A DNA stretch of 62,756 nt, filler included. It is 7 parts of 7 records of this genome, joined end to end, with 100 filler letters (N's around TTAATTAATTAA, not from the genome) between each part and the next. Parts side by side here need not be neighbours in the genome. Positions count along the whole stretch, not along the records: positions 29,198 to 38,590 come from SRR31156797_7915; 6 more parts are not named here. One strand, given 5' to 3'. The notes beneath the pieces were generated by a model that saw only the letters and a program-made list of their open reading frames with translations, made no database searches and had not been told where the DNA came from. Position numbers and translations under genes: made by a program. Numbering within the stretch: the stretch's first letter is position 1; each line of letters begins with the position of its first letter. Below, one piece after another: positions 19,686 through 51,898 of the stretch.

Positions 19686-20226
19686 TTCATTCACTGATGC
19701 TACTGGTCAAGAAGTTAAAACAGCTTTCTTAGACTTTGAATTGGACTTCCCAATTAAAGCACAAAAAATGAACTCAGCAGCAGAATTAGAAATTCGTGCG
19801 ATGTCTACTGAAAAATCAGTAATCACACAAGCGTTTATTGATGAAGTATTGGCTAAATCTGCTGAATTGATTGAAAAATCTGACTTGGCTTGGAAAAATT
19901 CTCACACAAACTTGCAAGAGTTTACGAATGACGAATACCAAGCATACATGGAAGATAACGGAGCATACTTCAATGACTTGAAAGCACAATACCTAACTCA
20001 AAAAGATGTTGACTTTGCTCGTAAAGTATTGGAAACTGCTAAAGGAAATAACCAATTCAAAAAAGATGAAGACGGTAATACTTCAGGAACTGAAGTAACA
20101 GAATCTACTGTTGAAGAAACAACAACAGTTCCAGATGAAAAACTTGTAAAAGAAAATACTGCAGTAGCTGATGAATCAGCTATCCCTGCTGAGGATTTAC
20201 TAGGCTTAGGTGATTTATCTATTTAA
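19681..20226 (+). pseudogene. 5'-truncated fragment of an acidic protein (SSB-like acidic tail), function unknown
   Basis: Frame open from 19681 (DDSFTDATGQEVK...) with no ATG or RBS; biased, highly-expressed-type codons; ends ...AEDLLGLGDLSI. Confidence 0.5.
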
Positions 20227-20249
20227 TAATAAGTAATAGAGAGGAAATT

Positions 20250-20300
20250 AAATATACACGAGAAGATAGATTGTTTGTCTAACTTCTCGTGTATATTTTT
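20250..20300 (+). terminator. Strong hairpin terminator
   Basis: AAATATACACGAGAAG...CTTCTCGTGTATATTT 16-bp perfect stem followed by Ts. Confidence 0.8.
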
Positions 20301-20486
20301 GTATAGAATTAAAATTAAATATATGCGATGAATTACCTATACTTAACGAAAAAATTACAAAACGTTGTTTAATAATTAAAGTGAATTTTTAGCGGTGTCA
20401 TTTAAATTAATAGAATTTAAGCGTTTACTTAGATAATATGATATAATTAAATTAAAATCTCATATTATAGTAGGGAGTTATTTCTT

Positions 20487-21800: not shown

Positions 21801-22968
21801 TAATCAAAAATGGAACAAGTTGTTAAATATGACGGCTTTGAATGGAGATAAATACTTTCGGGAAAAACATTATTTGGACTTGATAAAAAAATATATGCCA
21901 AAAGAAGATTCTGTAGAAATTTTTAAAGAATTATTGGGAAAAAAAATGTTTAAAAGAAAATTTTCATATGAATGTGATGATGATATTTATGATGCTGAAC
22001 TGTTAGAAAAAAAGTGTGAAATATGTGGACTTAAAGTTATAGAACATGAATATTTTGAGCTATATTCCCCAAGTTATTTAAGTGAACTCTCAAAAAATAA
22101 TATTCAATTAATTAAAGATTATTATGATTCAGATTCTAAAATTGTTATGGAGGATGTAAGAAGTAATATTGATAGAGTAATTCCATTTGTTGGTTCTGGT
22201 ATAAGTAAAAATGTAGGGATGCCATTATGGTTAGAGCTTTTTAAAAAAGCTAAAGATAAGATATCTGATGAGTATATACCTTACTTTGATTTAGAATATG
22301 AATCAAAAAATATTGATAAAATTATAGAAATGGTCAAAAGAGTACATCCTTTGATTCAGGATGATAAAGATTTAAAAAAAGAAATAATAGCTCCTGAAAT
22401 AAAAAAAACTATTCCTAATGAAATCTTACTGAATTCAATAATACCTGATATATTAAAATTGGATGCAGAATATATTATTACAACAAATTATGATGATTTA
22501 CTTGAAAAAACGAGTTTATTACTATGTTCAGGATATGAAGAATCAAGAGACATTTCTTCATTCCAAGGATTTGAATCTTTGGATGAAACACAATATATAT
22601 TCCATATCCATGGTACTATTAAAAATTATGATTCAATGGTGGTTACTAATGAAGATTATAATAATTTATATGATTCTGAAGAGAAAAAAAGAATCCTTTC
22701 TGGTCTGATAAATAAACATTCTATGTTATTTTTAGGCTTTTCTATGGATGACACATACTTTAGTGATGAATTTGGGAAAATCTGTGAGTCTAATAAAGGG
22801 TATTGCACAAATTATTATGTAATGATTAATGGAGATAGACAGAAAAAAGATGAACTATTGAAGACAACAAACGTAAGGTTTATTAATATTAAATCAACTA
22901 ATTTTGATATTAAAAATCAGTATGAGTTTATGATTGAATATATATTAGGAAATATTTATATAGAGTAG
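21769..22968 (+). CDS. SIR2-like (SIR2_2) NADase-domain protein with N-terminal helical/Zn-ribbon extension
   Basis: PFVGSGIS...MPLWLEL, IITTNYDDLLE, IFHIHG, MLFLGFSMDD; N-terminal YEC...CEICG. Confidence 0.88.
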   Translation: MKEKLETLFINNQKWNKLLNMTALNGDKYFREKHYLDLIKKYMPKEDSVEIFKELLGKKMFKRKFSYECDDDIYDAELLEKKCEICGLKVIEHEYFELYSPSYLSELSKNNIQLIKDYYDSDSKIVMEDVRSNIDRVIPFVGSGISKNVGMPLWLELFKKAKDKISDEYIPYFDLEYESKNIDKIIEMVKRVHPLIQDDKDLKKEIIAPEIKKTIPNEILLNSIIPDILKLDAEYIITTNYDDLLEKTSLLLCSGYEESRDISSFQGFESLDETQYIFHIHGTIKNYDSMVVTNEDYNNLYDSEEKKRILSGLINKHSMLFLGFSMDDTYFSDEFGKICESNKGYCTNYYVMINGDRQKKDELLKTTNVRFINIKSTNFDIKNQYEFMIEYILGNIYIE

Positions 22969-22989
22969 CTAATAAAGTTACTCTTTTTG
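22961..22989 (+). terminator. Terminator closing the SIR2 operon
   Basis: AGAGTAGCT-aataa-AGTTACTCT followed by a T-run, overlapping the stop codon. Confidence 0.65.
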
Positions 22990-23040
22990 TTCTATAAATT
23001 TGCATCCTCCTATTTAAGATGCTATAAAGGTCCTTGTAAG

Positions 23041-23149
23041 GGATACTTTTGTAATTTCTATCCATCACAAAGCCTATTCTATCAATAGCTATGATGTTGA
23101 TTTAGTAAAGATGGATAGATTTATATTACAAGAGATAGAAAGTATCCAT
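23041..23149. repeat. Nested inverted repeats upstream of the second recombinase
   Basis: GGATACTTT/AAAGTATCC, TGTAAT/ATTACA and TCTATCCATC/GATGGATAGA arms. Confidence 0.7.
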
Positions 23150-23175
23150 AAATCATTCATCATGGAGGGAGGAAA

Positions 23176-23748
23176 ATGACACAGAGAAAAATTAATGTCA
23201 AACCAATTAAGTCCAAAGAGGTTCTGAATCAGTTTGCCACGGAATTTTTGAAAAACAAACATGGACAAAGAGATTATACAATTTTCGTGTTTGGTATTTT
23301 TACAGGGCTACGTATTTCAGATATTCTTAATCTGAAAGTTAGTGACGTGAAAGGAAAGCTCAAGGCTGATATTATTGAGAAAAAGACAGGGAAAAAACGC
23401 ACGCTTAATTTAATGCAATTAACAAATCAAATAATTATATACCTTGACGAGGAACACGATGGACAAAGTGAATGGTTATTTCCTAGTCCAAGGGATAATA
23501 CGAAACATTTAGCTACACACCAGTTCTATAAGATTATGCAGAAAACGGCTAATTTCCTTGATTTAGACTATATAGGAACTCATACATTGAGAAAAACCTT
23601 TGGTTATACCTATTATCAGAAAACAAAAGATTTAACTTCACTGATGAAAATTCTAAATCATAGTTCGCAGAGCGTAACTTTACGTTATATTGGTATTGAG
23701 GAAGAGGAGCTTCAGTCAAGTTTAGATAATTTTAATCCATTTCAATAA
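23176..23748 (+). CDS. Small tyrosine recombinase (catalytic domain only, 190 aa)
   Basis: TGLRISD, EKKTGK, GTHTLRKT, LNH, TLRY; GGAGG RBS. Confidence 0.92.
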   Translation: MTQRKINVKPIKSKEVLNQFATEFLKNKHGQRDYTIFVFGIFTGLRISDILNLKVSDVKGKLKADIIEKKTGKKRTLNLMQLTNQIIIYLDEEHDGQSEWLFPSPRDNTKHLATHQFYKIMQKTANFLDLDYIGTHTLRKTFGYTYYQKTKDLTSLMKILNHSSQSVTLRYIGIEEEELQSSLDNFNPFQ

Positions 23749-26921: not shown

Positions 26922-27488
26922 ATGACAAGAACTATTGGTTATATACGCACAAGTAAAAACACACAAGACCTAGGATTGGAAGTACAACGAAAAGCATTAG
27001 AACGATTTGAGCCAGATGAATTATTTTCTGAACAAATCAGTGGGCGAAAAGAAAATCGAACAGAACTAGAGAAAGCGTTGAATTGCTTGGAAAAAGGTGA
27101 CACTTTACTTATTTACAATTTATCAAGGTTGAGTCGTTCCTCGAAACAATTAGTAAATTTAATGTCTGAACTGAATGAGCAGGAGATTTATCTGAAAAGT
27201 ATCCAAGAATCCATCGATACCAGAACAGCGAGCGGACGCTTGTTCTTTACCGTTTTAGCAGGTATTGCAGAGTTTGAAGCGGAAAGTATTAGTTTACGAA
27301 CAAAAGAAGCGTTGGCTAACTCGGATAAACGACTAGGCAGACCACCGATTAAGAAAAATAAATGCAAAAAAATTATTATTTTGTATCAAGAAAATAAGTT
27401 ATCGCTAAAAGAAATTGCAAAAAAATGTGGTGTATCTGAGAAAACGGTTTACAATATTGCTAAAAAAGAAGGTCTTTCAAGAAAATGA
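26922..27488 (+). CDS. Serine recombinase (resolvase/invertase family) with C-terminal HTH
   Basis: IGYIRTS (catalytic Ser), SG...R, LSRLSRS, IAEFE, GRPP, LKEIAKKCGVSEKTVY. Confidence 0.92.
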   Translation: MTRTIGYIRTSKNTQDLGLEVQRKALERFEPDELFSEQISGRKENRTELEKALNCLEKGDTLLIYNLSRLSRSSKQLVNLMSELNEQEIYLKSIQESIDTRTASGRLFFTVLAGIAEFEAESISLRTKEALANSDKRLGRPPIKKNKCKKIIILYQENKLSLKEIAKKCGVSEKTVYNIAKKEGLSRK

Positions 27489-29097: not shown

Positions 29098-29197
29098 NNN
29101 NNNNNNNNNNNNNNNNNNNNNNNNNNNNNNNNNNNNNNNNNTTAATTAATTAANNNNNNNNNNNNNNNNNNNNNNNNNNNNNNNNNNNNNNNNNNNN
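29098..29197. other. Artificial contig linker
   Basis: N44-TTAATTAATTAA-N44. Confidence 0.98.
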
Positions 29198-29241
29198 TCG
29201 AACTTGGAAAAAACTCCTCATTTCTGGCCAGACACTAACTG

Positions 29242-30258
29242 GTGTCTATAAGGAATGGCGGCGTCGATTTGAAACCAATAGGAATCATAGCCAACCCCTC
29301 GTCGGGCAAGGACATCCGTCGTCTGGTCGCTCACGGGTCCGTCTTTGACAATAATGAGAAAGTCAATATTGTCAGGCGACTGCTGGCGGCCATGGACTGT
29401 CTGGGCGTGAAAAAAGTATATATCATGCCGGAAAGCTACCAGATCGGGCCCCGGGCGAAAGACGAACTGGACCTTTCATTGGATGTGTCATTTCTGGACA
29501 TGGAAGTAAACGGGGATCAGGACGATTCAACCAGGGCGGCCGGAATAATGGCCGAGTTGGGCGTGGCCTGCATAATAACTCTGGGCGGTGACGGCACCAA
29601 CCGGGTTGTGGCCAAGGCCTGTGGAGACGCGCCCCTGATTCCCATTTCAACCGGCACTAATAATGTCTTCCCGCAAATGGTTGAAGGAACCCTGGCCGGC
29701 ATGGCCGCTTCCGCAATTGCTTCCGGGGCGGTATCCGTACAGGGAGCTTCCCGGCGCGTACCAAGGTTGGAAATCCACAGGGGTGAAGAACTTGTGGACA
29801 TTGCATTGGTGGACCTCGTTGTTGCAGATGACGGCTTCACCGGGTCCCGGGCCATATGGGAAGTATCGTCCTTAAGAGAAATCTTCCTGACCCGGGCTCA
29901 GCCGGCCAACATAGGTTTTTCATCCATAGGAGGCCAGCTATGCCCGCTGCCGTCAGATTCGGGCAAGGCCCTGCATTTGAAAGTCGGCCCGAAAGGCTGT
30001 CTGGTCCGGGCGCCCATTGCTCCGGGACTGTTATGCAGCCTGCCCGTGGCCGATCACAGGGTCTTTGAAAGCGGGGAAGACATTCCCCTGTCCAATACGC
30101 CTTGCATGATCGCTCTTGACGGCGAACGGGAAATGAACGTGCAGGCGGGCGACAGGCTTTCCATAAGGCTTAATCCGGACGGGCCGGTTGTGCTGGATAT
30201 TGAAAAAATTTTGGAAAAAGCCGCCGAAAAAGGATTCTTTGTCGTGGATGGAGAATGA
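29242..30258 (+). CDS. acoX: Acetoin catabolism protein X (ATP-NAD kinase/AcoX family)
   Basis: GIIANPSSGKDIRRLVA, LGGDGTNR, STGTNNVFP, ALDGERE. Confidence 0.88.
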   Translation: MSIRNGGVDLKPIGIIANPSSGKDIRRLVAHGSVFDNNEKVNIVRRLLAAMDCLGVKKVYIMPESYQIGPRAKDELDLSLDVSFLDMEVNGDQDDSTRAAGIMAELGVACIITLGGDGTNRVVAKACGDAPLIPISTGTNNVFPQMVEGTLAGMAASAIASGAVSVQGASRRVPRLEIHRGEELVDIALVDLVVADDGFTGSRAIWEVSSLREIFLTRAQPANIGFSSIGGQLCPLPSDSGKALHLKVGPKGCLVRAPIAPGLLCSLPVADHRVFESGEDIPLSNTPCMIALDGEREMNVQAGDRLSIRLNPDGPVVLDIEKILEKAAEKGFFVVDGE

Positions 30259-30360
30259 AATATCGGCCGGATATACGAGAATAACCCTGATTAATTCAGT
30301 TGGATTTGTTGTTTAACACTATCGGCTTTATGAGCCGCTCAAATTAGAAGGAGAAAAGTG

Positions 30361-31341
30361 ATGAAACTGGAAAAGGAACAGTTGCTGAAACTTTACACAA
30401 ACCTGGTCCGCACGCGCATGTTTGACCAGGCAGCCGTAAAGTGGCTGGCCGCCGGTAAACTCCTGTCATTTTACCACCCCGCCTTCGGAGGTGAAGCGCC
30501 CGGCGTTGGGGGTACAACCTTTTTGAATGACGACGACGTTGTATATCCTCACTTGAGAGGTCACGGCTTGCCCCACCTGATCGGCAAGGGCTGTTCACCC
30601 AAAACTTACATGGCCGAACACTGCGGGCGTGTTACCGGATCGGCTAACGGACTTGGCGGCGTGCACGCCGAGTACCCGGATAAGGGCATCATGGGCGGAG
30701 GAGGAACAATCGGTTCCGGCTTCCCGGTCAGCGCCGGCTGGGGCGTTGCCGCCAAAAAGAACGGAAGAGGCCAGGTCGTGGTCTGCTTTTTCGGCGACGG
30801 AACGTCCAACAGGGGCACCTTCCATGAAGCCGCCAACATGGCCGCGGTCTGGAAGCTCCCAATTGTATGGGTATGTGAAAACAACGGCATCGCCCAGTAC
30901 GTGCCTATTAAAGACGCCTACCCCCTTGACGACCTGGCCAGCCTGGCCGCCGGTTACGGTATGCCCGGTGTTGTTGTGGACGGTCAGGATGTAGTTGCCG
31001 TGGCCGAAGCGGTTATGGCCGCGGTGGAACGCGCCCGCGATGGAAAGGGGCCTTCCTTTATCGAATGCAAAACATCCCGTTTCAGCGCCCACGGCGTGGG
31101 CAATCCGGACAAGATTCACGGCGTCCAGAGGGACCCGGCCGAAATCGAGGAGTTGAAAAAGCGGGACCCCATCGAAATCCTTAAAAAGAGGCTGCTTGAG
31201 CAGGGAATCCTTAAGGAAGAAGATGTTGAACGAATCGACGCGGAAGCGAAAGCCGAAGTTGATGATACCGAAAAGTTCATCGATGAAAGCCCGTTCCCGG
31301 ACGATCCGAGCATGTTGGACCGGGCCTTGTACGCGGATTAA
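30361..31341 (+). CDS. TPP-dependent dehydrogenase E1 alpha (AcoA/PdhA family)
   Basis: TPP motif FFGDG...WVCENN, VDGQDV, GPSFIE, RDPI. Confidence 0.9.
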   Translation: MKLEKEQLLKLYTNLVRTRMFDQAAVKWLAAGKLLSFYHPAFGGEAPGVGGTTFLNDDDVVYPHLRGHGLPHLIGKGCSPKTYMAEHCGRVTGSANGLGGVHAEYPDKGIMGGGGTIGSGFPVSAGWGVAAKKNGRGQVVVCFFGDGTSNRGTFHEAANMAAVWKLPIVWVCENNGIAQYVPIKDAYPLDDLASLAAGYGMPGVVVDGQDVVAVAEAVMAAVERARDGKGPSFIECKTSRFSAHGVGNPDKIHGVQRDPAEIEELKKRDPIEILKKRLLEQGILKEEDVERIDAEAKAEVDDTEKFIDESPFPDDPSMLDRALYAD

Positions 31342-31356
31342 GAAGGGAGTTTTACA

Positions 31357-32319
31357 ATGAGAGAAATAATGTACCTGCAGGCCGTAAAAGAGGCCTTGGC
31401 TGAAGAAATGGAAAGGGATGAATCCGTATTCCTGATCGGGGAAGGCGTGCAGACCGGCACTTTCGGCACTACCACCGGGCTGGTCGATCAATTCGGCCCC
31501 GAGAGGATCATGGACGCCCCCCTGGCGGAAACCGCCATTGCCGGCGTGGCCGTGGGAGCGGCTTTAATGGGATACCGGCCGGTGGCCGACCTGATGTTCG
31601 CGGATTTCATGTATTGTTGCGCGGACGAAGTATTGCTCAAGGCTTCCCAATGGCGTCTCATCCAGGGCGGAACCCAGAGCGTGCCCTGTGTATTTCTGGG
31701 CGCCATCGGCGGATACCGCAAGTTGGGCAACGAGCATTCACAGTGTCCTTTTTCATTAGTTCTTCACACTCCCGGCCTCAAGCTGGCCGTCCCTTCCAAC
31801 CCGTACGACGCCAAGGGCCTGTTAAAAACCGCTATACGGGACAATAACCCCGTGGTCTTTTTCTTCCACAAGGGTCTGCTGGGGTTGACCGGCGAAGTGC
31901 CCGACGAGGAATATACGGTCCCGTTCGGCAAGGCCGACATAAAAAGGGAAGGGACCGACGTCACTGTGTTGGCGACGTCATTCATGGTTTTCTGGGCCAT
32001 GGCCGCGGCCGAGCACCTTAAGGACAAGATTAGCGTCGAAGTCATAGATCCCAGAACATTGGAACCGTTCGATCTGGAAACCGTGGTTGAATCGGTCAAG
32101 AAAACCAACAGGCTGGTCATAATAGACGAAGACACAGAACGGTGCGGCTTTGCCGGCGAACTGGGCATGCAGATCATGGAACATGCATTTGATTATCTGG
32201 ATGCGCCGGTCAAGAGAGTATGTTCGGCCAACTATCCCATTCCCGGCGGCGTGATGGAAAAATACGTGCTTCCTCAACCGGAGCAGATCATCGCGGCCAT
32301 TGAAGAGGTCATGGAATAG
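31357..32319 (+). CDS. Dehydrogenase E1 beta (AcoB/PdhB family)
   Basis: DAPLAE, RPVADLMFADF, HSQ, DAKGLL, IDPRTL. Confidence 0.9.
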   Translation: MREIMYLQAVKEALAEEMERDESVFLIGEGVQTGTFGTTTGLVDQFGPERIMDAPLAETAIAGVAVGAALMGYRPVADLMFADFMYCCADEVLLKASQWRLIQGGTQSVPCVFLGAIGGYRKLGNEHSQCPFSLVLHTPGLKLAVPSNPYDAKGLLKTAIRDNNPVVFFFHKGLLGLTGEVPDEEYTVPFGKADIKREGTDVTVLATSFMVFWAMAAAEHLKDKISVEVIDPRTLEPFDLETVVESVKKTNRLVIIDEDTERCGFAGELGMQIMEHAFDYLDAPVKRVCSANYPIPGGVMEKYVLPQPEQIIAAIEEVME

Positions 32320-32457
32320 AATATCCATTTCCGCGGAATCGAATTGTTATTGGGCCTGTTTATATAAAAAGAACAACGGATGCAATGCAACCAGGTCCGG
32401 CCCTTGGCCGGCCCTGGTCGGGCCCATTCTTTGCTCATTCAAAAGGAGAATTTTCAG

Positions 32458-33711
32458 ATGGCGAACGAAATTGTAATCCCCAAGCTGGGAATGACCATGG
32501 CCAGCGCCAAAGTCGCCGAATGGGTCGCCAAGGAAGGCGATTGGGTCGAAGAAAACCAGATCGTGCTGGTCATTGAAACGGAAAAGGTAACCTATGAAGT
32601 CGAAGCCCTGTCTTCCGGATACCTGCATATAATAGCCGCGCCGGAAACCGTGGCCGCCGTGGGCGAAGCTGTTGGCCTGCTCGCCGGTGACAAGGAAGAA
32701 CTTGAAGAACTGCAAAAACAGCAGCCTGCTCCAGCCGGGACCCCTGTTTCCACAGAAGATACGGCGCCAAAGGAAGCTGCGGCTGAAAAAGCCGCTCCCG
32801 CAGCCGGCGAACGGGTTAAAATATCTCCTCTGGCTAAAAAAATCGCCGGGGAACACGGCCTCGACTACTCGAGAATAAAGGGTTCGGGACCCGGAGGCCG
32901 GATTAAAAAAGTTGACGTGGAAAAAGCGTTGGCCGATAAGGCGTCCGCACCCGCGACCGTCGCACCGGTGGACGACGGGTTTGACGTTGTGGACGGCAAA
33001 AGGGTCAAGGCCGTGCTTCCGCTCACCGGTATCAGGGGCGTTATTGCCGATCACATGCAGCGCAGCCTGGCCGGATCCGCCCAGCTTACAACCATGGGCG
33101 AAATCGAAGTCGGGGCCATGGTCAAACTTCGGGAATCCTATAAGGCCAGGGAAGCTTCCATCGGCCTCCGCATATCTTATACCGATATCCTGGTGTATAT
33201 CCTGGCCAGGGCGCTCAAGGACAATCCGATCATGAATTCCAGCCTGGTCGACGGCGAGATCAAGCTATGGGAAGATATCAATATCGGCGTGGCCGTCTCC
33301 CTGCCCTGGCAGGAATGGGACGCCGGCCTGGTTGTGCCCGTGATTTACAACGCGGACAAGCTTTCCCTGTTGGAAATAAGTAAAAAGTTGAAAGAGCTCA
33401 GGGAAAAGGCCGTATCCGGAACCCTGGCCCTTGATGAGATCACCGGCGGCACATTCACTATTTCCAACGTTGGCGGATTCGGCAAGGGATACTTCTTTAA
33501 CACGCCGATCATCAACCAGCCCCAGTCAGCCATTTTGGGCGTCGGCCCCATTCTTGACCGGCCGGTGGTGGAAGACGGAGAAATCGTGGTCCAATCGCTG
33601 ATGAATATCAGCCTCACTTTCGACCACCGTATAATAAACGGAGCTCCCATAGGTAAATTCTTGGGGCGCGTGGCCGAGTTCGCCGCCGATCCCGGTATGC
33701 TGCTGTTATAA
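32458..33711 (+). CDS. Dihydrolipoamide acyltransferase E2 (lipoyl, E3-binding and catalytic domains)
   Basis: Start MANEIVIPKLG after AAGGAG; lipoyl Lys in IETEKV; GSGPGGRI; GGTFTISN; FDHRIING. Confidence 0.92.
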   Translation: MANEIVIPKLGMTMASAKVAEWVAKEGDWVEENQIVLVIETEKVTYEVEALSSGYLHIIAAPETVAAVGEAVGLLAGDKEELEELQKQQPAPAGTPVSTEDTAPKEAAAEKAAPAAGERVKISPLAKKIAGEHGLDYSRIKGSGPGGRIKKVDVEKALADKASAPATVAPVDDGFDVVDGKRVKAVLPLTGIRGVIADHMQRSLAGSAQLTTMGEIEVGAMVKLRESYKAREASIGLRISYTDILVYILARALKDNPIMNSSLVDGEIKLWEDINIGVAVSLPWQEWDAGLVVPVIYNADKLSLLEISKKLKELREKAVSGTLALDEITGGTFTISNVGGFGKGYFFNTPIINQPQSAILGVGPILDRPVVEDGEIVVQSLMNISLTFDHRIINGAPIGKFLGRVAEFAADPGMLLL

Positions 33712-33800
33712 AAAATACATGTAAACCCTGCCCGGCGAATATTGCCAGAGGCAGGGTTAGATATGTTTAAATCAGAATATGAAATCATCGAGGTGTATAT

Positions 33801-35171
33801 ATGTATGATGTCGTTGTAATCGGCGGCGGACCGGGAGGTTATGCAGCCGGAATCCGCGTCTCCCAACTGGGAGGCAAGGCGGCCCTGGTTGAAGCCGGCG
33901 ATCTTGGAGGCACGTGCGTCAATCACGGATGCATCCCTTCCAAGGTGTGGATGCACGCGGCCGATCTTATGCGGCGAATTCGCGGTTCCGAGGATTTCGG
34001 GATAAAGACTACCATAGATAAGGTTGATCTCCAGGCGGTGGTTGACCGTAAAAACGGCGTGGGCGCCGACATCCGCACCGGCATGGAAGCCCTTTTGGCT
34101 AATAATGGAGTGGAACTTATCCGGGGGCGGGGAGTGGTTAAGGGCCCCGGTAAAGTGGAAGCTGATGGAAAAATATTAGAAACAAAAAATATTATTCTGG
34201 CTTCGGGCAGCAGCCTCCATATTCCTGATATCCCAGGCCTTTCAGAAAACTCCTTAACCAGCGACCAGGTTCTCAATAACACTGAAACGCCCGGTTCCGT
34301 CCTCATCTGGGGCGCCGGGCCCATTGAAGTTGAGATAGCAGGTTTTCTGAATGTTTTCGGGGCCAAGGTCTTTTTGGCGACCGATGCCCCCCGAATACTG
34401 CCCATGGAAGATCATGACGCCAGTCAGAGAATAACCCAGGCCCTGAAAGAACAAGGCCTGGAAATCATGACCAGGGCGTCGCTTGCTTCAGTTCAAAAAA
34501 AGAATGGATCTTGTGAAGCGGTTTTTAGCGCTCCGAAAGAACAAACCCTGGAAGTGGAACAGGTTGTTGTTGCTTCCAGGAAGCCCAATACAAAAGGCCT
34601 GGGCCTTGAACAGGCCGGAGTAAAGCTGAATGAAGACGGCGGCGTGGACGTTTCCGCTAAACTTGAAACATCCGTCCCCGGCATATACGCCATCGGCGAT
34701 GTCACTGGAGGATGGATGCTCAGCCATGCCGCTTCGGCCATGGCTGTAACCGCGGCCCAGAACATAATGGGCCAGCCCTGCGAATTCGCCTTTAATCAGG
34801 TTTCCAGGGGCTTGTGGACTTTTCCCGAAGCAGCCGCCGTGGGATTGTCCGAGGAAGAAGCCGAAAAACAAGGTTATGACGTGGAAGTCGGCGACTTCCC
34901 TTACGCCATTAACGGCCTGGCCATGTCCAGGGGCGAGATCGCCGGTTCGGTCAAGATAGTGACCGAATCTCAATACGGCGAAATTCTGGGCGTGCATATC
35001 GTTGGATCCGGCGCCACCGAGCTTATTGGAGAAGCGGCGCTGGCCATCCATCTGGAATGCACTGCCGAAGAACTGGCTCAAAATATCCGTGTGCACCCCA
35101 CTTTTTCCGAAGCAGTGGTCGATGCGGCCCGGGACGCCATGGGTTGGGCTTTGTACCTGCCTAAAAGATAA
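33801..35171 (+). CDS. lpdA: Dihydrolipoamide dehydrogenase E3 with atypical NAD-binding motif
   Basis: FAD motif GGGPGG, redox disulfide GGTCVNHGCIPSK, HPTFSE; second Rossmann motif reads GAGPIEVE. Confidence 0.9.
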   Translation: MYDVVVIGGGPGGYAAGIRVSQLGGKAALVEAGDLGGTCVNHGCIPSKVWMHAADLMRRIRGSEDFGIKTTIDKVDLQAVVDRKNGVGADIRTGMEALLANNGVELIRGRGVVKGPGKVEADGKILETKNIILASGSSLHIPDIPGLSENSLTSDQVLNNTETPGSVLIWGAGPIEVEIAGFLNVFGAKVFLATDAPRILPMEDHDASQRITQALKEQGLEIMTRASLASVQKKNGSCEAVFSAPKEQTLEVEQVVVASRKPNTKGLGLEQAGVKLNEDGGVDVSAKLETSVPGIYAIGDVTGGWMLSHAASAMAVTAAQNIMGQPCEFAFNQVSRGLWTFPEAAAVGLSEEEAEKQGYDVEVGDFPYAINGLAMSRGEIAGSVKIVTESQYGEILGVHIVGSGATELIGEAALAIHLECTAEELAQNIRVHPTFSEAVVDAARDAMGWALYLPKR

Positions 35172-35190
35172 AACGCCGGAAAAGATCGAA

Positions 35191-35216
35191 AACCCGGACA
35201 GACTTCTGTCCGGGTT
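35191..35216. terminator. Perfect hairpin between lpd and the cytochrome gene (terminator or mRNA stabiliser)
   Basis: AACCCGGACAGA-CT-TCTGTCCGGGTT, with no clear U-tail. Confidence 0.5.
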
Positions 35217-35226
35217 CAATTGAATT

Positions 35227-36912
35227 ATGAAATATAAAATCGCTTTAATTGTCGCTGTACTTGCGTTAGTGCTTTTTCATTGTTCACCCGCAATGTCTTC
35301 CTGGCTGATCGACCCGGAGAGTTTTCATGTTTCCGTGCACGGGGCCTTGTCCTGCGCGGATTGTCATGAAGATATACCCGATAAGGAAAGCCACCCGGAC
35401 CCGAACGCGGTCAAGGGAAAAAAGGGAAAGGAATTTAATCCGGACAGATGCGCGGCTTGTCATGATGATGTGGATACCATGCTTGATGATGGCGTTCACG
35501 GCGGAAGAAAAATTGAAACAGCAGCACAGATTAACAACTGCTTAAAGTGTCATGACCCTCACTATGAATTGGCGAAAGAGCAGGACAATAAAGAATTCGA
35601 CCCCATGGCTCCGCCGGAGAGCCAATGCGCCGTCTGTCATGAACTGCAGACCAAAACTCCGGCCCTGGCCGGCGAAGACGCACAGTGTCTGGCCTGCCAC
35701 TCTTCAGGCCTGACCAAGGGCATAGGCCGGGATCAAATCTGCGCGACTTGTCATGAATCAAAGGGAAACTTTGTAAATCGGGAAACAAAACCTCCTGTTC
35801 CACATTTTTCTTTTTCAGAAATTGATTCTTCCGACCATAAGGATCTGTCTTGTCTGGATTGCCATTTAAAGGCCGCGCAATACAATCACGATCGGCAGGT
35901 TCCTGTGAACTGCCTGGCCTGTCATGACCGACACGGCGAGAGGCAGGCCCATGATGCACATTTGGGGATTTCCTGCGCGCGCTGTCATATTCCCGGAGCC
36001 CCGCCATTTTCCAATCCGGCTGATGGGCGACTTAATATTCATGGATTTGGAGAAGATGAGGCGGACAATGGCTGTATGCGTTGTCATCACCAGGGAAACG
36101 ATCTTGGCGCATCATCGGTTGCGCTGCCGGCCAAGAGCGTCATATGCATGCCTTGTCATTCTGCTTCCCTGACTGTTGGCGACGGCGTTTCATTAACCGC
36201 TCTGATTATTTTTGGAATAGGTTTGCTTTTTTCCGGCATGGTCTGGTTTTCCGGTTCGGCCGTGGAAAGCAGCGGCAAAAAGCGGGCGTCGTTCCTGAGA
36301 GCAATTCCCTCGGCTTTAAAGTCGGTTTTACTGGACGCCTTACTGCAGCGCAGGTTGTTCAAACGTTCAAAAGCACGTTGGCTGATACATGCTCTCATTT
36401 TCTGGCCATTTGTATTCAGATTCCTGTGGGGGCTTACAGCGCTTTTGGGAACGGCTTTGGCGCCGGACCTTGCGGGCGTCTGGAACATGATAGATAAAAA
36501 TAATCCCCTTGGCGGATTCCTGTTCGACCTTTCCGGAATTCTAGTGTTGATCGGCGCCGGGGCCGCTGTTTTGCGAGGGTTGTTATCATCTCGAAAAACC
36601 ATTCCCGGCTTGCCGGGCAAGGATTTCCTCGCCCTGATTCTGCTCGGCGGCATGATGGCTACGGGCTTCATTGTCGAAGGCATGAGGATTGCCATGACAG
36701 GCTTCCCGGCTGGCTCGGAATGCGCCTTTATCGGCCGGTCAATTGGTTTTGTTTTGTCAGACATTGAAGGATTAACCGATATCTACGCCTGGTTCTGGTA
36801 TGGTCATGCGGTTTTTGTGGGCCTTTTTGTCGCCTGGCTGCCTTTCAGCCGCATGTTTCACATTATTACGGCGCCGATTGTGGCCGCGATAAATGCATCG
36901 GATAAGCATTAG
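35227..36912 (+). CDS. Multiheme cytochrome c (11 CxxCH) fused to a NarI/HdrE/DsrM-like membrane cytochrome b domain
   Basis: Signal peptide; 11 CxxCH motifs counted; C-terminal TM region with WLIHALIFW, WYGH and LPFSRMFHI. Confidence 0.85.
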   Translation: MKYKIALIVAVLALVLFHCSPAMSSWLIDPESFHVSVHGALSCADCHEDIPDKESHPDPNAVKGKKGKEFNPDRCAACHDDVDTMLDDGVHGGRKIETAAQINNCLKCHDPHYELAKEQDNKEFDPMAPPESQCAVCHELQTKTPALAGEDAQCLACHSSGLTKGIGRDQICATCHESKGNFVNRETKPPVPHFSFSEIDSSDHKDLSCLDCHLKAAQYNHDRQVPVNCLACHDRHGERQAHDAHLGISCARCHIPGAPPFSNPADGRLNIHGFGEDEADNGCMRCHHQGNDLGASSVALPAKSVICMPCHSASLTVGDGVSLTALIIFGIGLLFSGMVWFSGSAVESSGKKRASFLRAIPSALKSVLLDALLQRRLFKRSKARWLIHALIFWPFVFRFLWGLTALLGTALAPDLAGVWNMIDKNNPLGGFLFDLSGILVLIGAGAAVLRGLLSSRKTIPGLPGKDFLALILLGGMMATGFIVEGMRIAMTGFPAGSECAFIGRSIGFVLSDIEGLTDIYAWFWYGHAVFVGLFVAWLPFSRMFHIITAPIVAAINASDKH

Positions 36913-36924
36913 GAGAAATATACA

Positions 36925-37347
36925 ATGGAAATACAAGGATATGTTCTGCCCGATGATCTGTATTACGATCGGGATCATTACTGGATAAAGGAAGAAGGCG
37001 ATTTGCTGGTCATGGGAATGAATGACTTTGCTCAAAAACTGGCCGGTGAAATTGTATACGTGCAACTGCCTTTTGAAGGTAAAAAGCTCACGGCTGGAAA
37101 AAAGTTTGCCGCGGTGGAATCCGGCAAGTGGGTCGGCAAGGTCTTTGCCCCTGTTTCAGGCGAGATCGTGGAGTCGAACGTTGCTCTTGAAGGCCAACCC
37201 GGCCTGATCAATCAGGATTGCTACGGCAGCGGCTGGATGTATAAGCTGCGGCCGAACGACATTTCCGATCTGGGAAACCTGATTCAAGGCGCCGAAGCAG
37301 TGGAAAAGTGGCTTCTATCTGAGATAGAAAAGCACAACGCAAGTTAA
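36925..37347 (+). CDS. GcvH-like lipoyl carrier protein
   Basis: DLYY..DHYW, GMNDFAQ, lipoyl-Lys in VESGKWVG, APVSGEI, YGSGW; no gcvT or gcvP nearby. Confidence 0.88.
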   Translation: MEIQGYVLPDDLYYDRDHYWIKEEGDLLVMGMNDFAQKLAGEIVYVQLPFEGKKLTAGKKFAAVESGKWVGKVFAPVSGEIVESNVALEGQPGLINQDCYGSGWMYKLRPNDISDLGNLIQGAEAVEKWLLSEIEKHNAS

Positions 37348-37349
37348 AA

Positions 37350-38537
37350 GTGGCTGTCAAGGATTATAAAAGAAGACAACTGCTGGAAATGGACGCATGC
37401 ACAAACTGCGGGATGTGTGTGGAAGTTTGCCCGGCAGTGGAAGCTTCCAGCGACGGGCGGCTGTCCGGAGTTTACAGGATTGACGGTTTGCGGCGCCTAC
37501 TGCGACGCCGCTCCGGGTTGCTATCCCGTTTTGTGAAAAACGAAGATTTGTCCGAAAAAATGACCGATTTCGGCCGGACTGTTTTCTCCTGCACCTTGTG
37601 CGCGAATTGCCAGGAAGTTTGTCCGGTCGGACTGGGACTGAAAGACATGTGGTGTTCAGCCCGGGCCGACATTGTTCATGAAGAATCAGGGCCGCAAAAG
37701 ATAACCATGATCCGTGACAACCTGTTATCAAGCCGCAACGTGTTTGATGAGGAAAACGAAGAAAGAGCGGAATGGGTTGAAGATCTTCGCGATCCGCCGG
37801 ACGACGGATATGTCCGGGAGCGGGCGGAAGTGGTTTATTTTACCGGCTGCGTAGCATCCTTCTTTCCCCTGGCCCAGAAAATACCCATGAACCTGGCCGA
37901 AATTTTCGAAATGTGCGATGTGGATTTCACATTGCTGGGCGAAGATGAATGGTGCTGCGGCTTCCCCCTTTTGGGCGCGGGACTGAAAGAATACATGCAG
38001 GAATTCATTGACCACAACATGAATGCGGTCAGGTCAAGAGGCGCCCGAAAAATAGTCTTCGCCTGCCCGTCCTGTTACCAGATGTGGAAAGAACATTATC
38101 CGCCGGAATTTGAAATAGCACACGCTACAGAATTTCTGAAGGATTTGATACAAAAACGTCAATTGGATGCACCCGGGTTGAATCTGAAAGTGACTTACCA
38201 TGACCCCTGCGACCTTGGCCGGGGCGCCCGCGTGTTTGACGCACCCAGGCAGGTTATTCGCTCCCTGCCCGGTGTCGAACTTGTGGAATTGCCTGGAAAC
38301 CGCGAAAACTGCCGGTGCTGCGGCGGAGGCGGCAACCTGGAAATGATCGACCCCGATCTTTCCAGGGAAATAACCAGGCTTAAAATTGAGGACGTCCTTT
38401 CAACGGGCGCTCAGGCCGTGGTCACCGGCTGCCAGCAGTGCGTGCGCACCATGACCGGTTATGTCCGCAAGAATAATACGCCCATTGAAGTAATGGATAT
38501 TACCCAGCTGGTTCATAGCGCCCTGAAAGGCAAGTAA
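37350..38537 (+). CDS. HdrD/GlpC-like Fe-S oxidoreductase (two [4Fe-4S] motifs + two CCG domains)
   Basis: CTNCGMCVEVCP, CTLCANCQEVCP, EWCCG...CPSC, YHDPC...CCGGGG...CQQC. Confidence 0.9.
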   Translation: MAVKDYKRRQLLEMDACTNCGMCVEVCPAVEASSDGRLSGVYRIDGLRRLLRRRSGLLSRFVKNEDLSEKMTDFGRTVFSCTLCANCQEVCPVGLGLKDMWCSARADIVHEESGPQKITMIRDNLLSSRNVFDEENEERAEWVEDLRDPPDDGYVRERAEVVYFTGCVASFFPLAQKIPMNLAEIFEMCDVDFTLLGEDEWCCGFPLLGAGLKEYMQEFIDHNMNAVRSRGARKIVFACPSCYQMWKEHYPPEFEIAHATEFLKDLIQKRQLDAPGLNLKVTYHDPCDLGRGARVFDAPRQVIRSLPGVELVELPGNRENCRCCGGGGNLEMIDPDLSREITRLKIEDVLSTGAQAVVTGCQQCVRTMTGYVRKNNTPIEVMDITQLVHSALKGK

Positions 38538-38590
38538 GGCGCCGCTAGCAAACCACCCCCAAAAAGCTATATGGCCCAATCTCTGCGTCA

Positions 38591-38690
38591 NNNNNNNNNN
38601 NNNNNNNNNNNNNNNNNNNNNNNNNNNNNNNNNNTTAATTAATTAANNNNNNNNNNNNNNNNNNNNNNNNNNNNNNNNNNNNNNNNNNNN
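38591..38690. other. Artificial contig linker
   Basis: N44-TTAATTAATTAA-N44. Confidence 0.98.
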
Positions 38691-51873: not shown

Positions 51874-51898
51874 TCCGCCCTGCCCGGTGACAATCAAA

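Follow-up and report, generated by a model that had tools for sequence, protein, structure and literature searches.

The window, the whole 62,756-nucleotide stretch of DNA that was analysed, consists of seven contigs joined by artificial N44-TTAATTAATTAA-N44 linkers, and all of the genes described here lie on one of them (SRR31156797_7915; positions 29198-38590, 9,393 bp whole, GC 0.535). The true 5' end of this contig was revealed by the unstranded joining linker at 29098-29197, with N runs at 29098-29141 and 29154-29197 and the linker proper at 29142-29153, where the GC content jumped from 0.29 to 0.535. The true 3' end, 53 nt past the hdrD-like stop codon, is marked by a second unstranded linker at 38591-38690. 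Because the window was assembled by artificial joining, nothing outside 29198-38590 is a genuine neighbour. An earlier sequence-only reading of this DNA had overlooked the joining.

ORF calls, Pfam and NCBIfam profiles and motifs bore out the eight same-strand ORFs that had been described from the sequence, with their coordinates and families; all lie on the plus strand, and the intergenic gaps from acoX through the CCG gene were 99, 15, 60, 89, 55, 12 and 2 nt, the last two lying within the trio of genes discussed below. The first ORF (29242-30258) encodes an AcoX-like protein of 338 residues with a NAD-kinase/DAG-kinase fold (Pfam NAD_kinase, E 5.4e-10) and a GTG start; it is complete, as an in-frame TAA lies two codons upstream, and its promoter region was lost, since the contig begins 44 nt upstream. 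It is followed by the E1 alpha subunit of a TPP-dependent dehydrogenase (30358-31341; Pfam E1_dh, E 4.7e-68), for which the best NCBIfam model was PDH_E1_alph_y, with 263 bits where the cut-off is 393.85, and by E1 beta (31357-32319; Transket_pyr and Transketolase_C; NF006667 at 321.4 bits against a cut-off of 321). The E2 dihydrolipoyl acyltransferase (32380-33711; Biotin_lipoyl, E3_binding and 2-oxoacid_dh) was found to contain a single lipoyl domain (ETEK, K69), an E3-binding domain and a catalytic domain. The E3 dihydrolipoyl dehydrogenase (33801-35171; TIGR01350 at 430.7 bits against a cut-off of 408.8) has the redox-active motif CVNHGC.

The 55-nt spacer between E3 and the cytochrome gene contained a stable hairpin (35190-35217, plus strand; dG -21.8 kcal/mol, z -3.77), and none of 200 shuffled sequences folded equally well. 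The hairpin had been proposed, near 35191, as a possible separator of two transcripts; its existence was confirmed, but no U-tract was found 3' of it on the plus (coding) strand, and the terminator scan found it to be terminator-like on the minus strand only. Lacking a coding-strand U-tract, it is therefore a poor terminator.

Downstream of the hairpin, the gene at 35227-36912 encodes a fusion of two domains. The first (residues 1-312, 35227-36162) comprises a signal peptide, the hydrophobic segment 1-28 resembling one, and a periplasmic 11-heme c domain with Cytochrome_C7 and c3 Pfam matches. It contains exactly 11 CxxCH motifs between residues 43 and 311, as had been counted earlier, and all 11 were conserved without exception in the 26 family members compared. 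The second (residues 313-561, 36163-36912) is a NarI/HdrE/EtfD-like five-helix membrane domain, as judged from Pfam, Foldseek and topology; five hydrophobic helices were predicted after the N-terminal segment, with positive-inside loops. The claimed likeness to NarI was weaker by sequence (20.4 bits for Nitrate_red_gam, whose gathering score is 22.9) and was backed by the fold. A structure model that was confident in the membrane part only (pLDDT 70-90) matched NarI chains with probabilities of 0.95-0.97 and M. smegmatis EtfD with a probability of 1.00, all at E > 0.001. Three histidines of this domain were invariant, H388 and H545 on the cytoplasmic side and H527 on the periplasmic side; with no others invariant, a pair of bis-His hemes b for electron transfer across the membrane is not assured.

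The next gene (36925-37347) encodes a GcvH-type lipoyl carrier of 140 residues (GCV_H, E 9.6e-40), whose lipoyl lysine is K68 in the motif ESGK (codon 37126-37128). K68 was invariant in 41 of 41 GcvH-type sequences, and this protein is better conserved than its partners, its mean column identity being 77% against 53% in the cytochrome fusion. The last gene (37350-38537) encodes an HdrD-type cytoplasmic Fe-S protein (CCG, E 1.6e-30) with two ferredoxin-type 4Fe-4S motifs and two complete CCG motifs, at residues 167-242 (37848-38075) and 287-364 (38208-38441). In 29 of 29 HdrD-type sequences, the eight ferredoxin cysteines and the CCG cysteines C167, C202, C203, C239, C242, C287, C323, C324, C361 and C364 were invariant. 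Both proteins were predicted to be soluble, and no transmembrane segment was found in the HdrD-type protein.

Among species-representative genomes, 219 relatives of the fusion protein were identified, and neighbourhoods anchored on the fusion gene only were kept for 80 of them (139 were left out), with up to 10 kb on each side. The trio proved to be a genuinely conserved unit: in 39 of the 42 loci having at least 6 kb downstream, homologues of GcvH (60-72% identical) and HdrD (55-67% identical) were present beside the fusion gene, and hdrD lay directly 3' of gcvH in 44 of 47 loci, with a median gap of 83 nt. The pair was missing from three of the 42 well-covered loci, which weighs against a self-contained module; a HisRS-like gene followed the fusion gene at L009 and L035, and L041 was without gcvH. 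Recurrent neighbours were TRAP transporters, GntR/FCD regulators, LarA-like racemases, GlcD-like oxidases, acetoin-reductase-like SDRs and E1/E2/E3. As the finding lies on one contig, the absence of gcvT and gcvP seen there is valid for 9.4 kb only; it was upheld across the 80 loci, where neither these genes nor ETF were found among 23 annotated recurrent clusters and 184 further ORFs of at least 250 residues.

The loci fell into three classes, namely 14 E-type, 43 GlcD-type and 23 other, and the E-type and GlcD-type never overlapped. GlcD-type loci were marked by a GlcD-like FAD oxidase, by the CCG partner belonging to it or by both, and a LarA-like racemase was frequently present as well; E3 was absent from all 43, and their gcvH was present without an E2 for lipoylation. 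In 13 of the 14 E-type loci, the module was immediately preceded by E3, at a distance of no more than 350 nt in nine, and the link requires at least three gains or losses on a quickly built HdrD tree. Two loci had an acoX homologue closely upstream of the fusion gene without E1/E2/E3 between, directly adjacent at L012 and with an SDR gene between at L039. The sequence-only reading had linked the trio to this complex and presented it as a membrane-bound oxidoreductase that re-oxidises lipoyl dithiols and passes electrons to the periplasm. The conserved trio, the H protein and the CCG motifs stand, but a role mainly as the accessory of this complex does not, as E1/E2/E3 were present at only 14 of 80 loci. 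That reading would have been set aside had the trio usually been found with lactate or glycolate dehydrogenases and unlinked to the complex. The former company was indeed found, at 43 of 80 loci, but the trio cannot be called unlinked to the complex, because the link recurs and needs at least three changes on the HdrD tree.

These data bear on a mere chance juxtaposition, in which an aco-like operon stops at the hairpin and the trio is unrelated to it, with an ordinary glycine-cleavage H protein whose gcvT and gcvP lie elsewhere. The strong hairpin between E3 and the fusion gene would suit this explanation, as would the trio relatives, most of which are without E1/E2/E3, and a contig of only 9.4 kb leaves room for gcvT and gcvP elsewhere in the genome. 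The H protein itself scored above the NF002270 cut-off (137.1 against 117 bits), and its nearest structures were canonical GcvH; yet it narrowly missed the gcvH equivalog model TIGR00527 (112.6 against 115.85 bits). Since the complex-then-module order recurs in at least three places of the HdrD tree, gcvT and gcvP are missing from all 80 neighbourhoods of up to 10 kb on each side and the hairpin has no plus-strand U-tract, we regard chance juxtaposition as very improbable.

Lipoylation genes were a further frequent companion. Among the 38 loci covered for 8 kb or more downstream, Lpl-type lipoate ligase genes were present in 25 and LipS1-like plus LipS2-like genes in nine, eight of which also had a GGR/LipT-like flavoprotein; the LipS1-like (218 against 230) and LipS2-like (214.6 against 270) scores fell narrowly below the NCBI cut-offs. 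At L059, an Lpl-radical-SAM fusion lay directly upstream of the cytochrome fusion gene. Together with the invariance of K68, the nearby ligase genes support an H protein that appears to be set up for lipoylation. No lipoylation gene was found on the 9.4-kb contig, which ends 53 nt after hdrD, and this weighs against the module.

In Bacillus subtilis, GcvH acts in the LipM-GcvH-LipL lipoyl-relay route. By analogy, the H protein could be a lipoyl-relay or cofactor-assembly protein for E2 instead of an electron carrier, with the HdrD-like protein and the fusion forming an EtfD/EMO- or Dld-like wire that would take electrons straight from flavoproteins, such as E3 or the GlcD-like enzyme, to quinone or cytochromes. 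The clustering of Lpl, LipS1/S2-like and LipT-like genes with gcvH is consistent with this, and EtfD, whose donor is a flavoprotein, was the top structural and sequence match of both module proteins. However, gcvH is tied to hdrD and not to ligase and synthase genes, which many loci lack (no Lpl in 13 of 38 loci), and the GlcD-type loci have gcvH with no E2 to lipoylate. Among the annotated neighbours, no LipL-type amidotransferase-like cluster recurred, which is negative evidence only. We also compared predicted complexes: GcvH on HdrD gave a median ipSAE of 0.56, and the best of three controls gave 0.00, with 91% or more of contacts shared between runs and a partner pLDDT of 88 or higher. 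Of 80 solved complexes, 58 attained the ipSAE mark, as did 2 of 110 mismatched pairs; a value of 0.60 or less was given by only seven of those 80 and by both passing mismatches. The prediction thus lends weak support to the H protein as an HdrD partner, and the weakness of this support counts in favour of a lipoyl relay; on the whole, we consider the relay unlikely, though the least improbable of the alternatives.

The reading that we prefer, at a probability of roughly 0.5, is that the trio at 35227-38537 forms a membrane redox module complete in itself, which would act as a general lipoyl-protein:cytochrome/quinone oxidoreductase for several dehydrogenases. In sulfate-reducer-like bacteria, this conserved trio probably connects cytoplasmic enzymes with a membrane cytochrome that extends into the periplasm, a lipoyl protein acting as the electron shuttle; no published description of it was found in the literature. 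The cytoplasmic HdrD-type subunit would carry two cubane and two Hdr-type noncubane CCG clusters and dock on the NarI-like heme-b domain, itself fused to the 11 periplasmic c-type hemes, and its thiol/disulfide substrate would be the dedicated, co-encoded lipoylated GcvH-type protein. Cytoplasmic dehydrogenases would reduce the lipoyl disulfide of the H protein. On this contig, the donor would be the acetoin- or 2-oxoacid-type E1/E2/E3 complex, most simply through E3; in most relatives it would be a 2-hydroxyacid dehydrogenase of the GlcD-like kind, equipped with a CCG subunit of its own. E3 is the natural enzyme for H-protein lipoamide, and its position abutting the module is explained no less well by E3 loading the H protein than by the bypass of NADH proposed earlier. 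The HdrD-type subunit would then re-oxidise the dihydrolipoyl-H protein at its CCG clusters, and electrons would pass through the cubane clusters to heme b across the membrane and on to multiheme c and/or menaquinone.

The potentials of lipoamide and pyruvate/lactate are about -290 and -190 mV, respectively. Reduction of lipoyl-H by a GlcD-type enzyme would be about 100 mV uphill, and the majority context therefore fits a dehydrogenase-lipoyl-HdrD chain poorly, unless the membrane potential pulls the flow or electrons enter otherwise; a route without a lipoyl intermediate, as in the relay explanation, would be easier there. Electrons might instead run in reverse, from a pool of periplasmic cytochrome c supplied by hydrogen, formate or extracellular donors, or from menaquinol, through the 11-heme and heme-b domains and the HdrD-type protein to lipoyl-H, E3 and NAD+. 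In keeping with this, E3 borders the module in all but one of the 14 E-type loci, but it is absent from all 43 GlcD-type loci, and the recurrent neighbours are catabolic and would yield rather than consume reducing equivalents. A genomic proposal for Pelobacter carbinolicus (PMC3543383) has a membrane complex reducing a GcvH-like carrier, 'LarG', with dihydrolipoamide dehydrogenase then reducing NAD. The characterised relatives with catalytic CCG clusters are likewise reductases, namely HdrDE and, with DsrC-trisulfide, DsrMK (PMC10861901). Reduction of lipoamide from menaquinol, placed at about -70 mV in the same source, would be strongly uphill, and in EtfD and EMO, whose architecture is the closest to have been solved, electrons flow from the cytoplasm to quinone. 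We therefore regard reverse flow as improbable, slightly more so than the lipoyl relay.

In architecture, the trio belongs to the HdrDE/DsrMK/Tmc/EMO-EtfD class. For the preferred module, EtfD and EMO offer a precedent for direction, as in both of them electrons pass from a cytoplasmic protein carrier to menaquinone; EtfD reduces quinone but has a single heme b (PMC13083937). The accompanying lipoylation genes are of the same kind as those that mark LbpA in the sHdr system (PMC10332631). DsrK, TmcB and HmcF contain only one CCG motif (PMC10861901), whereas the HdrD-type protein contains two. The latter matched the soluble part of the M. smegmatis EtfD chain at E 2.7e-36, and alignment to EtfD and HdrB revealed C-C-G and Ser241 where EtfD has C-T-G (Thr539) and His583. 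In EtfD, C-T-G and the capping His583 render the clusters non-catalytic (PMC13083937). The HdrD-type protein, with the extra motif-1 cysteine and without the capping histidine, keeps features that EtfD lost as a pure relay, which argues against a simple wire; it retains both of the catalytic CCG motifs of Hdr type that were lost by the electron-relay EtfD.

The window consists of seven contigs divided by six linkers of the form N44-TTAATTAATTAA-N44 (10042-10141, 18499-18598, 29098-29197, 38591-38690, 47854-47953 and 53576-53675). The GC contents of the contigs, in order, were 0.29, 0.31, 0.29, 0.535, 0.586, 0.537 and 0.40, a spread that suggests a mixed or poorly binned draft assembly. The gene set described here fills exactly one contig (29198-38590; 9,393 bp; GC 0.535). 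Genes flanking this interval were ruled out as real neighbours because they lie on other contigs behind the artificial linkers, and Pfam scans of the flanks were uninformative on the finding for the same reason.

Several features were observed on the other contigs. A 29%-GC contig encodes, on the minus strand (733-6825), a 2,030-aa hybrid sensor kinase with three SBP_bac_3 stretches, a PAS domain, HisKA/HATPase domains, two receivers and an Hpt domain. Two phage-integrase-family genes (18720-19685 and 23176-23748) flank two ORFs; a 437-aa ORF without a known family (20487-21800) overlaps the gene for a SIR2_2-domain protein (21769-22968), and the region 18720-23748 may be a defence island. A resolvase gene was located at 26922-27488. 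On another high-GC contig, an FmdE-like gene (51196-51873) stands beside an FdhE-like gene (51973-52887, minus strand) and a Fer4_11 protein gene (52980-53444, minus strand), the last being 132 nt from the end of its contig; the region 51196-53444 resembles a portion of an accessory cluster for formate dehydrogenase or formylmethanofuran dehydrogenase. A 1,396-aa protein of the CoA-enzyme activase type (58169-62359, plus strand) fuses BcrAD/BadFG-type ATPase domains to DUF2229; ahead of its gene lie those for an MMPL/RND-like transporter (54587-56917) and a metallophosphoesterase (56914-58047).

The eight ORFs that the sequence-only reading had placed on one strand of the 9,393-bp contig were all found, with successive gaps of 99, 15, 60, 89, 55, 12 and 2 nt, and family searches bore out the domains it had assigned to them. 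The first ORF, acoX, is complete, an in-frame stop lying two codons before it, and encodes an AcoX-like protein of the NAD-kinase fold. It is followed by the E1 alpha and E1 beta subunits of a TPP-dependent dehydrogenase, an E2 with lipoyl (motif ETEK), E3-binding and catalytic domains, and an E3 dihydrolipoyl dehydrogenase (gene end at 35171) that carries the redox-active motif CVNHGC and passed the TIGR01350 cut-off (430.7 against 408.8 bits). The order and domains of these genes fit an acetoin dehydrogenase system (acoXABCL), the substrate being a prediction; the best curated models for E1 and E2 were those of PDH or OGDH, at or under their cut-offs, and acetoin-reductase-like SDR and Zn-ADH genes were present in related loci. 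The remaining three ORFs encode a 561-aa fusion protein in which 11 CxxCH motifs precede a membrane domain (35227-36912), a 140-aa GCV_H protein with its lipoyl lysine, K68, within ESGK (36925-37347), and a 395-aa HdrD-like protein with two ferredoxin motifs and two CCG domains (37350-38537); the contig ends 53 nt past the last stop codon. A search of the contig against Rfam gave no match at E values up to 0.1, and therefore no riboswitch or known RNA was recognized; a promoter and terminator scan gave counts no higher than those of shuffles (7 versus 6.6 and 16 versus 13.7, respectively).

The topology of the fusion protein follows the NarI pattern, with a signal peptide, a periplasmic heme-c domain, five transmembrane helices (N-out, C-in) and positively charged cytoplasmic loops; no membrane segments were found in the H protein or the HdrD-like protein. 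The Pfam family Nitrate_red_gam scored 20.4 bits, below its gathering score of 22.9, and a sequence search of the PDB with the fusion protein gave no match below E 0.03. The AlphaFold model of the whole protein had a mean pLDDT of 54.7 and was confident in the membrane domain alone; the heme domain fell below 50, and the model therefore says nothing on heme packing. Foldseek matched the membrane domain to Mycobacterium smegmatis EtfD with a probability of 1.00 and then to NarI chains (0.95-0.97), with E-values that were all above 0.001 and, for the NarI chains, above 0.1. All 11 heme motifs were invariant among 26 aligned members of the fusion family, as were three membrane-domain histidines only, namely H388 and the pair H527/H545, which are 18 residues apart; H388 and H545 are at the cytoplasmic face and H527 is at the periplasmic face. 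NarI-type proteins have four heme-ligand histidines, two in TM2 and two in TM5. The invariant Arg398, 10 residues past H388, is at about the position that we take to be that of the second TM2 heme ligand of NarI, and Met486 and Met490 at the periplasmic end of TM4 are nearly invariant. With three invariant histidines only, two bis-His hemes b are therefore not assured, and these residues, together with Arg398 and Met486/Met490, indicate that a periplasmic-side heme b, if present, may have unusual ligation.

Both ferredoxin motifs of the HdrD-like protein (C17/C20/C23/C27 and C81/C84/C87/C91) were intact, and its CCG motifs (C167..C202-C203..C239xxC242 and C287..C323-C324..C361xxC364) were complete with the extra bridging cysteines, as expected of HdrD; all eight ferredoxin cysteines and all ten CCG-motif cysteines were invariant in 29 of 29 sequences. 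None of the curated NCBIfam models for Hdr, DsrK, TmcB and HmcF came near its cut-off (DsrK 86.9 against 400, TmcB 89.9 against 735, HmcF 64.8 against 750), and the family is large and carries generic names only. According to the available part of PMC10861901, DsrK, TmcB and HmcF keep one CCG motif plus a conserved cysteine in T/GECGH; the scores and the two full CCG motifs thus ruled out these three as assignments. The best PDB sequence match, far above HdrB, was the soluble part of the EtfD chain (residues 409-745, E 2.7e-36). A residue-level alignment placed C-C-G where EtfD has C-T-G, and Ser241 at the position of EtfD His583. The module was rejected as an EtfD/EMO on its two genes, its CCG and Ser in place of CTG and His, and the lack of any ETF family among the annotated neighbours. 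Because of these residues, and of two CCG motifs against one in DsrK/TmcB/HmcF, we class the HdrD-like protein, on its sequence, as HdrD/HdrB type, apparently built for disulfide chemistry. An alternative is that the H protein is a lipoyl-relay or assembly protein only and that flavoproteins feed the HdrD-like/cytochrome pair directly, in the manner of EtfD. The closeness to EtfD in both subunits leads to this reading, but the retained C-C-G and Ser241 speak against it, and we regard it as doubtful.

To place the module in a wider context, relatives were sought by one scan of species-representative genomes with the 26-member fusion-protein alignment, which returned 219 fusion-protein relatives. 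In a database search, the fusion protein had one close relative (91% identity), all others being 45% identical or less, and these proteins are named merely "nitrate reductase gamma subunit" or "CXXCH cytochrome". The only close relatives were P0001 (91% identity) and P0121 (97% identity), the longest contig of each being 8,498 bp. When stand-alone forms of the membrane domain were sought, 117 shorter matches emerged, mostly on contigs of only about 1-3 kb and probably truncated; a few (for example P0241, P0248, P0269 and P0295) were on contigs longer than 15 kb. Locus statistics cover 80 of the 219 relatives, nearly all from Desulfobacterota/Thermodesulfobacteriota MAGs; synteny was anchored on the fusion gene alone, and gene presence was counted by tblastn with the proteins of the window.

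The trio is a conserved module. Homologues of GcvH (60-72% identity) and HdrD (55-67% identity) adjoin the fusion gene on the same strand; where the downstream DNA reached 6 kb or more, all loci but L009, L035 and L041 had both (39 of 42), and in 44 of 47 loci hdrD came immediately after gcvH (median gap 83 nt). Conservation is highest in the H protein, which has a mean column identity of 77% and carries K68 in all 41 of the 41 sequences. A histidyl-tRNA-synthetase-like gene (cluster 28) was observed next after the fusion gene in loci L005, L009, L024 and L035. No gcvH or hdrD was found in the DNA of these four loci, which extends 9-10 kb downstream in L009 and L035, and the fusion protein can therefore occur apart from its usual partners.

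Genes for lipoylation recur around the module. The expected link to lipoate ligases was recovered, as an LplA/B-type ligase gene was found after hdrD or elsewhere in 25 of the 38 loci with at least 8 kb downstream. In 9 of these 38 loci, LipS1-like and LipS2-like genes, both just under the NCBI cut-offs (218 against 230 and 214.6 against 270), stand beside a longer Lpl gene with a DUF116 domain, and a geranylgeranyl-reductase-family flavoprotein was also present in 8 of the 9. In two loci, another gene separates E3 from the module and immediately precedes the fusion gene: an Lpl-ligase/radical-SAM fusion (L059:8319-9950) in one and a radical-SAM gene (L042:9030-10010) in the other. The contig of the window, ending where it does past hdrD, contains no lipoylation genes. 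The H protein was over the GcvH family cut-off for NF002270 (137.1 against 117) and just under that for TIGR00527 (112.6 against 115.85). GcvT, GcvP and ETF were found neither among the 23 annotated recurrent neighbour clusters of the 80 loci nor among 184 other ORF representatives of at least 250 aa (97 scanned at E up to 1e-12 and 87 at E up to 1e-25). The absence of gcvT and gcvP claimed by the sequence-only reading, being drawn from a single contig, is therefore valid within its 9.4 kb; it extends to the 80 loci and is not a genome-wide statement. That the trio stands beside the E1/E2/E3 genes by chance and contains an ordinary glycine-cleavage H protein, as the family scores of that protein might be taken to say, is very improbable when set beside the recurrent gene order and the neighbourhoods of the 80 loci. 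Families of TusA, DsrE, rhodanese and sHdr genes were likewise absent among the annotated neighbours of the 80 loci, and HdrA/MvhD-like ORFs occurred in L076 and L077 only, several kb away.

Neighbouring ORFs were clustered, the cluster representatives were annotated, and context classes were assigned by tblastn. The proposed linkage of the trio to E1/E2/E3 held in part: 14 of 80 loci (E-type) share with the window an upstream set of E1 alpha, E1 beta, E2 and E3, and the majority of loci are without them. In 13 of the 14 E-type loci the module is immediately preceded by E3, which is at most 350 nt away in nine. In L013 (1668-6879), the fusion gene begins 85 nt past a set of E1 alpha, E1 beta and E2 and no E3 intervenes, and the locus has 418 nt of DNA past the set; it is the sole E-type locus in which the module might replace E3. 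The hairpin that had been noted between E3 and the fusion gene as a possible boundary is real (35190-35217, -21.8 kcal/mol, z -3.77); the coding strand 3' of it reads TTCAATTGAATT, with no U-tract, and the terminator scan scored it as terminator-like solely on the opposite strand. That E3 also stands immediately ahead of the fusion gene elsewhere among the genomes speaks against a hard operon boundary there. In a quick maximum-likelihood tree of the HdrD-like protein, with SH-aLRT support only, most E-type modules formed one supported clade, with the copy of the window and that of L016 outside it, and well-supported branches forced at least three gains or losses of the E link.

The commonest context was a different one. 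A GlcD-like FAD oxidase (496 bits; glcD cut-off, 568) and/or its CCG partner stands beside the fusion gene at 43 of the 80 loci (GlcD-type), the partner being about 28% identical to the HdrD-like protein of the window. Both genes lie between the fusion gene and gcvH in most of these loci; in L021, L023, L027 and L028, the GlcD-like gene and gcvH are upstream of the fusion gene. A LarA-like racemase gene was found upstream in 18 of the 61 loci with at least 1.5 kb upstream, accompanied in GlcD-type loci by TRAP transporters and GntR/FCD regulators. The two classes showed zero overlap among the 80 loci. The remaining 23 loci showed neither set over the DNA covered, many being short or cut at a contig end, and in some of them (L012, L034 and L039) the fusion gene is immediately preceded by an AcoX-like and/or an acetoin-reductase-like SDR gene. 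Of the 29 loci in which each flank reached 6 kb or more, 20 were GlcD-type, five E-type and three neither, and one was GlcD-type without gcvH.

Two side observations concern these neighbourhoods. A second pair of GlcD-like and HdrD-like genes was seen upstream of the fusion gene in L001, L041, L056, L057, L062, L064, L078 and L079, the former 40-45% identical to the main GlcD-like representative and the latter 38-45% identical to the HdrD-like protein of the window; some loci thus encode three CCG proteins. In L017, the fusion-gcvH-hdrD set is preceded at a distance of about 1 kb by a pair of acyl-CoA dehydrogenase genes (6598-8957), with no ETF gene in the locus; EtfD, the nearest solved relative, serves acyl-CoA dehydrogenases via ETF (PMC13083937, in its available part).

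The module most likely acts at the membrane as a lipoyl-protein oxidoreductase. After lipoylation by the co-encoded ligases, the H protein would be the thiol/disulfide substrate of the HdrD-type subunit, which would sit on the heme-b domain, itself continuous with the 11-heme periplasmic wire. A prediction of the HdrD-GcvH complex points weakly to such a contact, with a median ipSAE of 0.56 against 0.00 for the best of three controls, contacts that agreed by at least 91% between runs and partner pLDDT of at least 88. The ipSAE mark was reached by 58 of 80 solved complexes and by 2 of 110 mismatched pairs, and scores of up to 0.60 belonged to 7 of the 80 solved complexes and to both mismatches. 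E3 naturally acts on the lipoamide of the H protein, as the L protein of glycine cleavage. The E1/E2/E3 enzymes on the contig of the window would yield dihydrolipoyl groups, which E3 would equilibrate with the H protein; the HdrD-type subunit would then oxidize the dihydrolipoyl-H protein and pass electrons outward to the cytochrome domain and/or menaquinone. We favour this outward direction, as inferred by analogy, because the neighbours are catabolic and EtfD/EMO offer a precedent for the architecture. The same parts could run in reverse, from the periplasm or menaquinol through the lipoyl-H protein and E3 to NADH, a direction that the E3 gene would accommodate; given the catabolic neighbours, we consider it improbable.

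Because the midpoint potentials are about -190 mV for lactate/pyruvate and about -290 mV for lipoamide, the GlcD-type context fits a simple dehydrogenase-to-lipoyl chain poorly. A broader reading, to which we give roughly one chance in four, is that a lipoylated H-type protein serves as a diffusible two-electron carrier of anaerobic respiration, in which a protein-bound lipoamide pool collects electrons from several cytoplasmic dehydrogenases and delivers them through the Hdr-type subunit to the 11-heme periplasmic wire. Acetoin/2-oxoacid complexes would enter via E3, and GlcD-type 2-hydroxyacid dehydrogenases via their own CCG subunit. The membrane potential would aid export, NAD(H) and possibly the quinone pool would be bypassed, and the device would be comparable to the reverse redox loop of EMO but with disulfide chemistry. 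If true, this carrier reading would name a physiological thiol/disulfide partner of an HdrD-like membrane complex in Desulfobacterota.

Sulfate reducers and syntrophs commonly have HdrD-like CCG proteins that sit on membrane cytochromes (in Tmc, Hmc and many sets without a name), and for most such sets the cytoplasmic thiol/disulfide partner is unassigned or merely assumed to be DsrC. Here, the operon itself encodes a candidate partner, a lipoyl protein with its own maturation genes, in a module spread over at least 219 species-level genomes; the labels that annotation gives its genes ("GcvH", "nitrate reductase gamma subunit" or "heterodisulfide reductase subunit D") mislead. Should the H protein prove to be the substrate, lipoate would have a second respiratory role beyond sHdr-LbpA, electrons from acetoin, 2-oxoacids and 2-hydroxyacids would have a route to periplasmic cytochromes, and the three proteins would form a tractable system pairing Hdr-type noncubane clusters with a protein-bound cyclic disulfide. 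A full-text literature search of incomplete coverage found no description of a GcvH, HdrD and multiheme/NarI gene set; the available part of the D. multivorans paper does not mention GcvH or lipoate, and that of the paper on ANME-partner sulfate reducers does not mention GcvH, HdrD or NarI.

Upon comparison with known systems, HdrDE of Methanosarcina is alike in having a cytoplasmic subunit with two ferredoxin-type clusters and two complete CCG motifs, and also in its NarI-like cytochrome b and its thiol/disulfide substrate, both of which are putative for the module; HdrDE has been overlaid with EtfD (available part of PMC13083937). HdrD belongs to a methanogen context, whereas the HdrD-like loci are those of bacterial Desulfobacterota MAGs, the membrane subunit has an additional 11-heme c domain in the periplasm, a protein-bound lipoyl disulfide takes the place of CoM-S-S-CoB as the putative substrate, the likely direction is oxidation, and no NCBIfam Hdr model reached its cut-off. 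DsrMK(JOP), TmcABCD and HmcABCDEF are likewise transmembrane complexes that connect electrons of the periplasm or the quinone pool with an HdrD-like subunit in the cytoplasm, whose target is the sulfur redox centre borne by the protein DsrC, and Tmc and Hmc also have multiheme c subunits (as described in the available sections of PMC10861901). Unlike these, the module has two CCG motifs rather than one in its HdrD-like protein, heme-c and heme-b domains in one polypeptide, and a lipoyl protein rather than DsrC as the co-encoded carrier.

EtfD of mycobacteria and EMO of Syntrophus are the closest solved relatives of both the HdrD-like protein and the membrane domain, and they share the path from a soluble cytoplasmic protein carrier to the membrane. 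In the accessible text of PMC13083937, EtfD is a single chain with a NarI/HdrE-like membrane domain and an HdrD-like domain that carries electrons to menaquinone, with ETF as the donor and four Fe-S clusters and one heme b as the path, and its CCG clusters are non-catalytic, the extra cysteine having given way to Thr539 and the second cluster being capped by His583. The EMO of Syntrophus has an equivalent role; it contains three hemes b and works as a reverse redox loop driven by the pmf (bioRxiv 10.64898/2026.08.18.745454, available part). The module, in contrast, is split over two genes with an N-terminal 11-heme c domain added, appears to keep the catalytic Hdr-type CCG state, and would use GcvH rather than ETF as its carrier, there being no ETF genes in the 80 loci.

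The nearest published ideas are sHdr-LbpA and the LarG hypothesis. The sHdr system also joins an Hdr-like CCG enzyme to a dedicated GcvH-homologous lipoate-binding protein, and an Lpl/LipS1/LipS2/LipT-like maturation set occurs in some module loci; in sHdr sulfur oxidizers, lipS1-slpl(AB)-lipT-lipS2 matures LbpA (PMC10332631, in the part available). The module differs in having neighbours without HdrA, HdrB, HdrC or TusA/DsrE/rhodanese (apart from the distant HdrA/MvhD-like ORFs of two loci), in being membrane-bound with cytochromes rather than cytoplasmic, in an H protein closest to canonical GcvH, and in hosts that are Desulfobacterota-type anaerobes, not sulfur oxidizers. LarG of Pelobacter carbinolicus is a GcvH-like lipoyl protein that Aklujkar et al. 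(2012) proposed to carry electrons, by means of its disulfide, between dihydrolipoamide dehydrogenase/NAD and a cytochrome complex of the membrane (PMC3543383); in the available text, this is a genomic speculation without synteny statistics, and the complex is Act (alternative complex III-like), with no HdrD-like partner. The likeness lies in a GcvH-like lipoyl protein that would link membrane cytochromes to dihydrolipoamide dehydrogenase. Judged from gene content, what is new relative to HdrDE, DsrMK, Tmc and EMO-type complexes is a predicted dedicated lipoyl-protein partner together with a fused multiheme domain.
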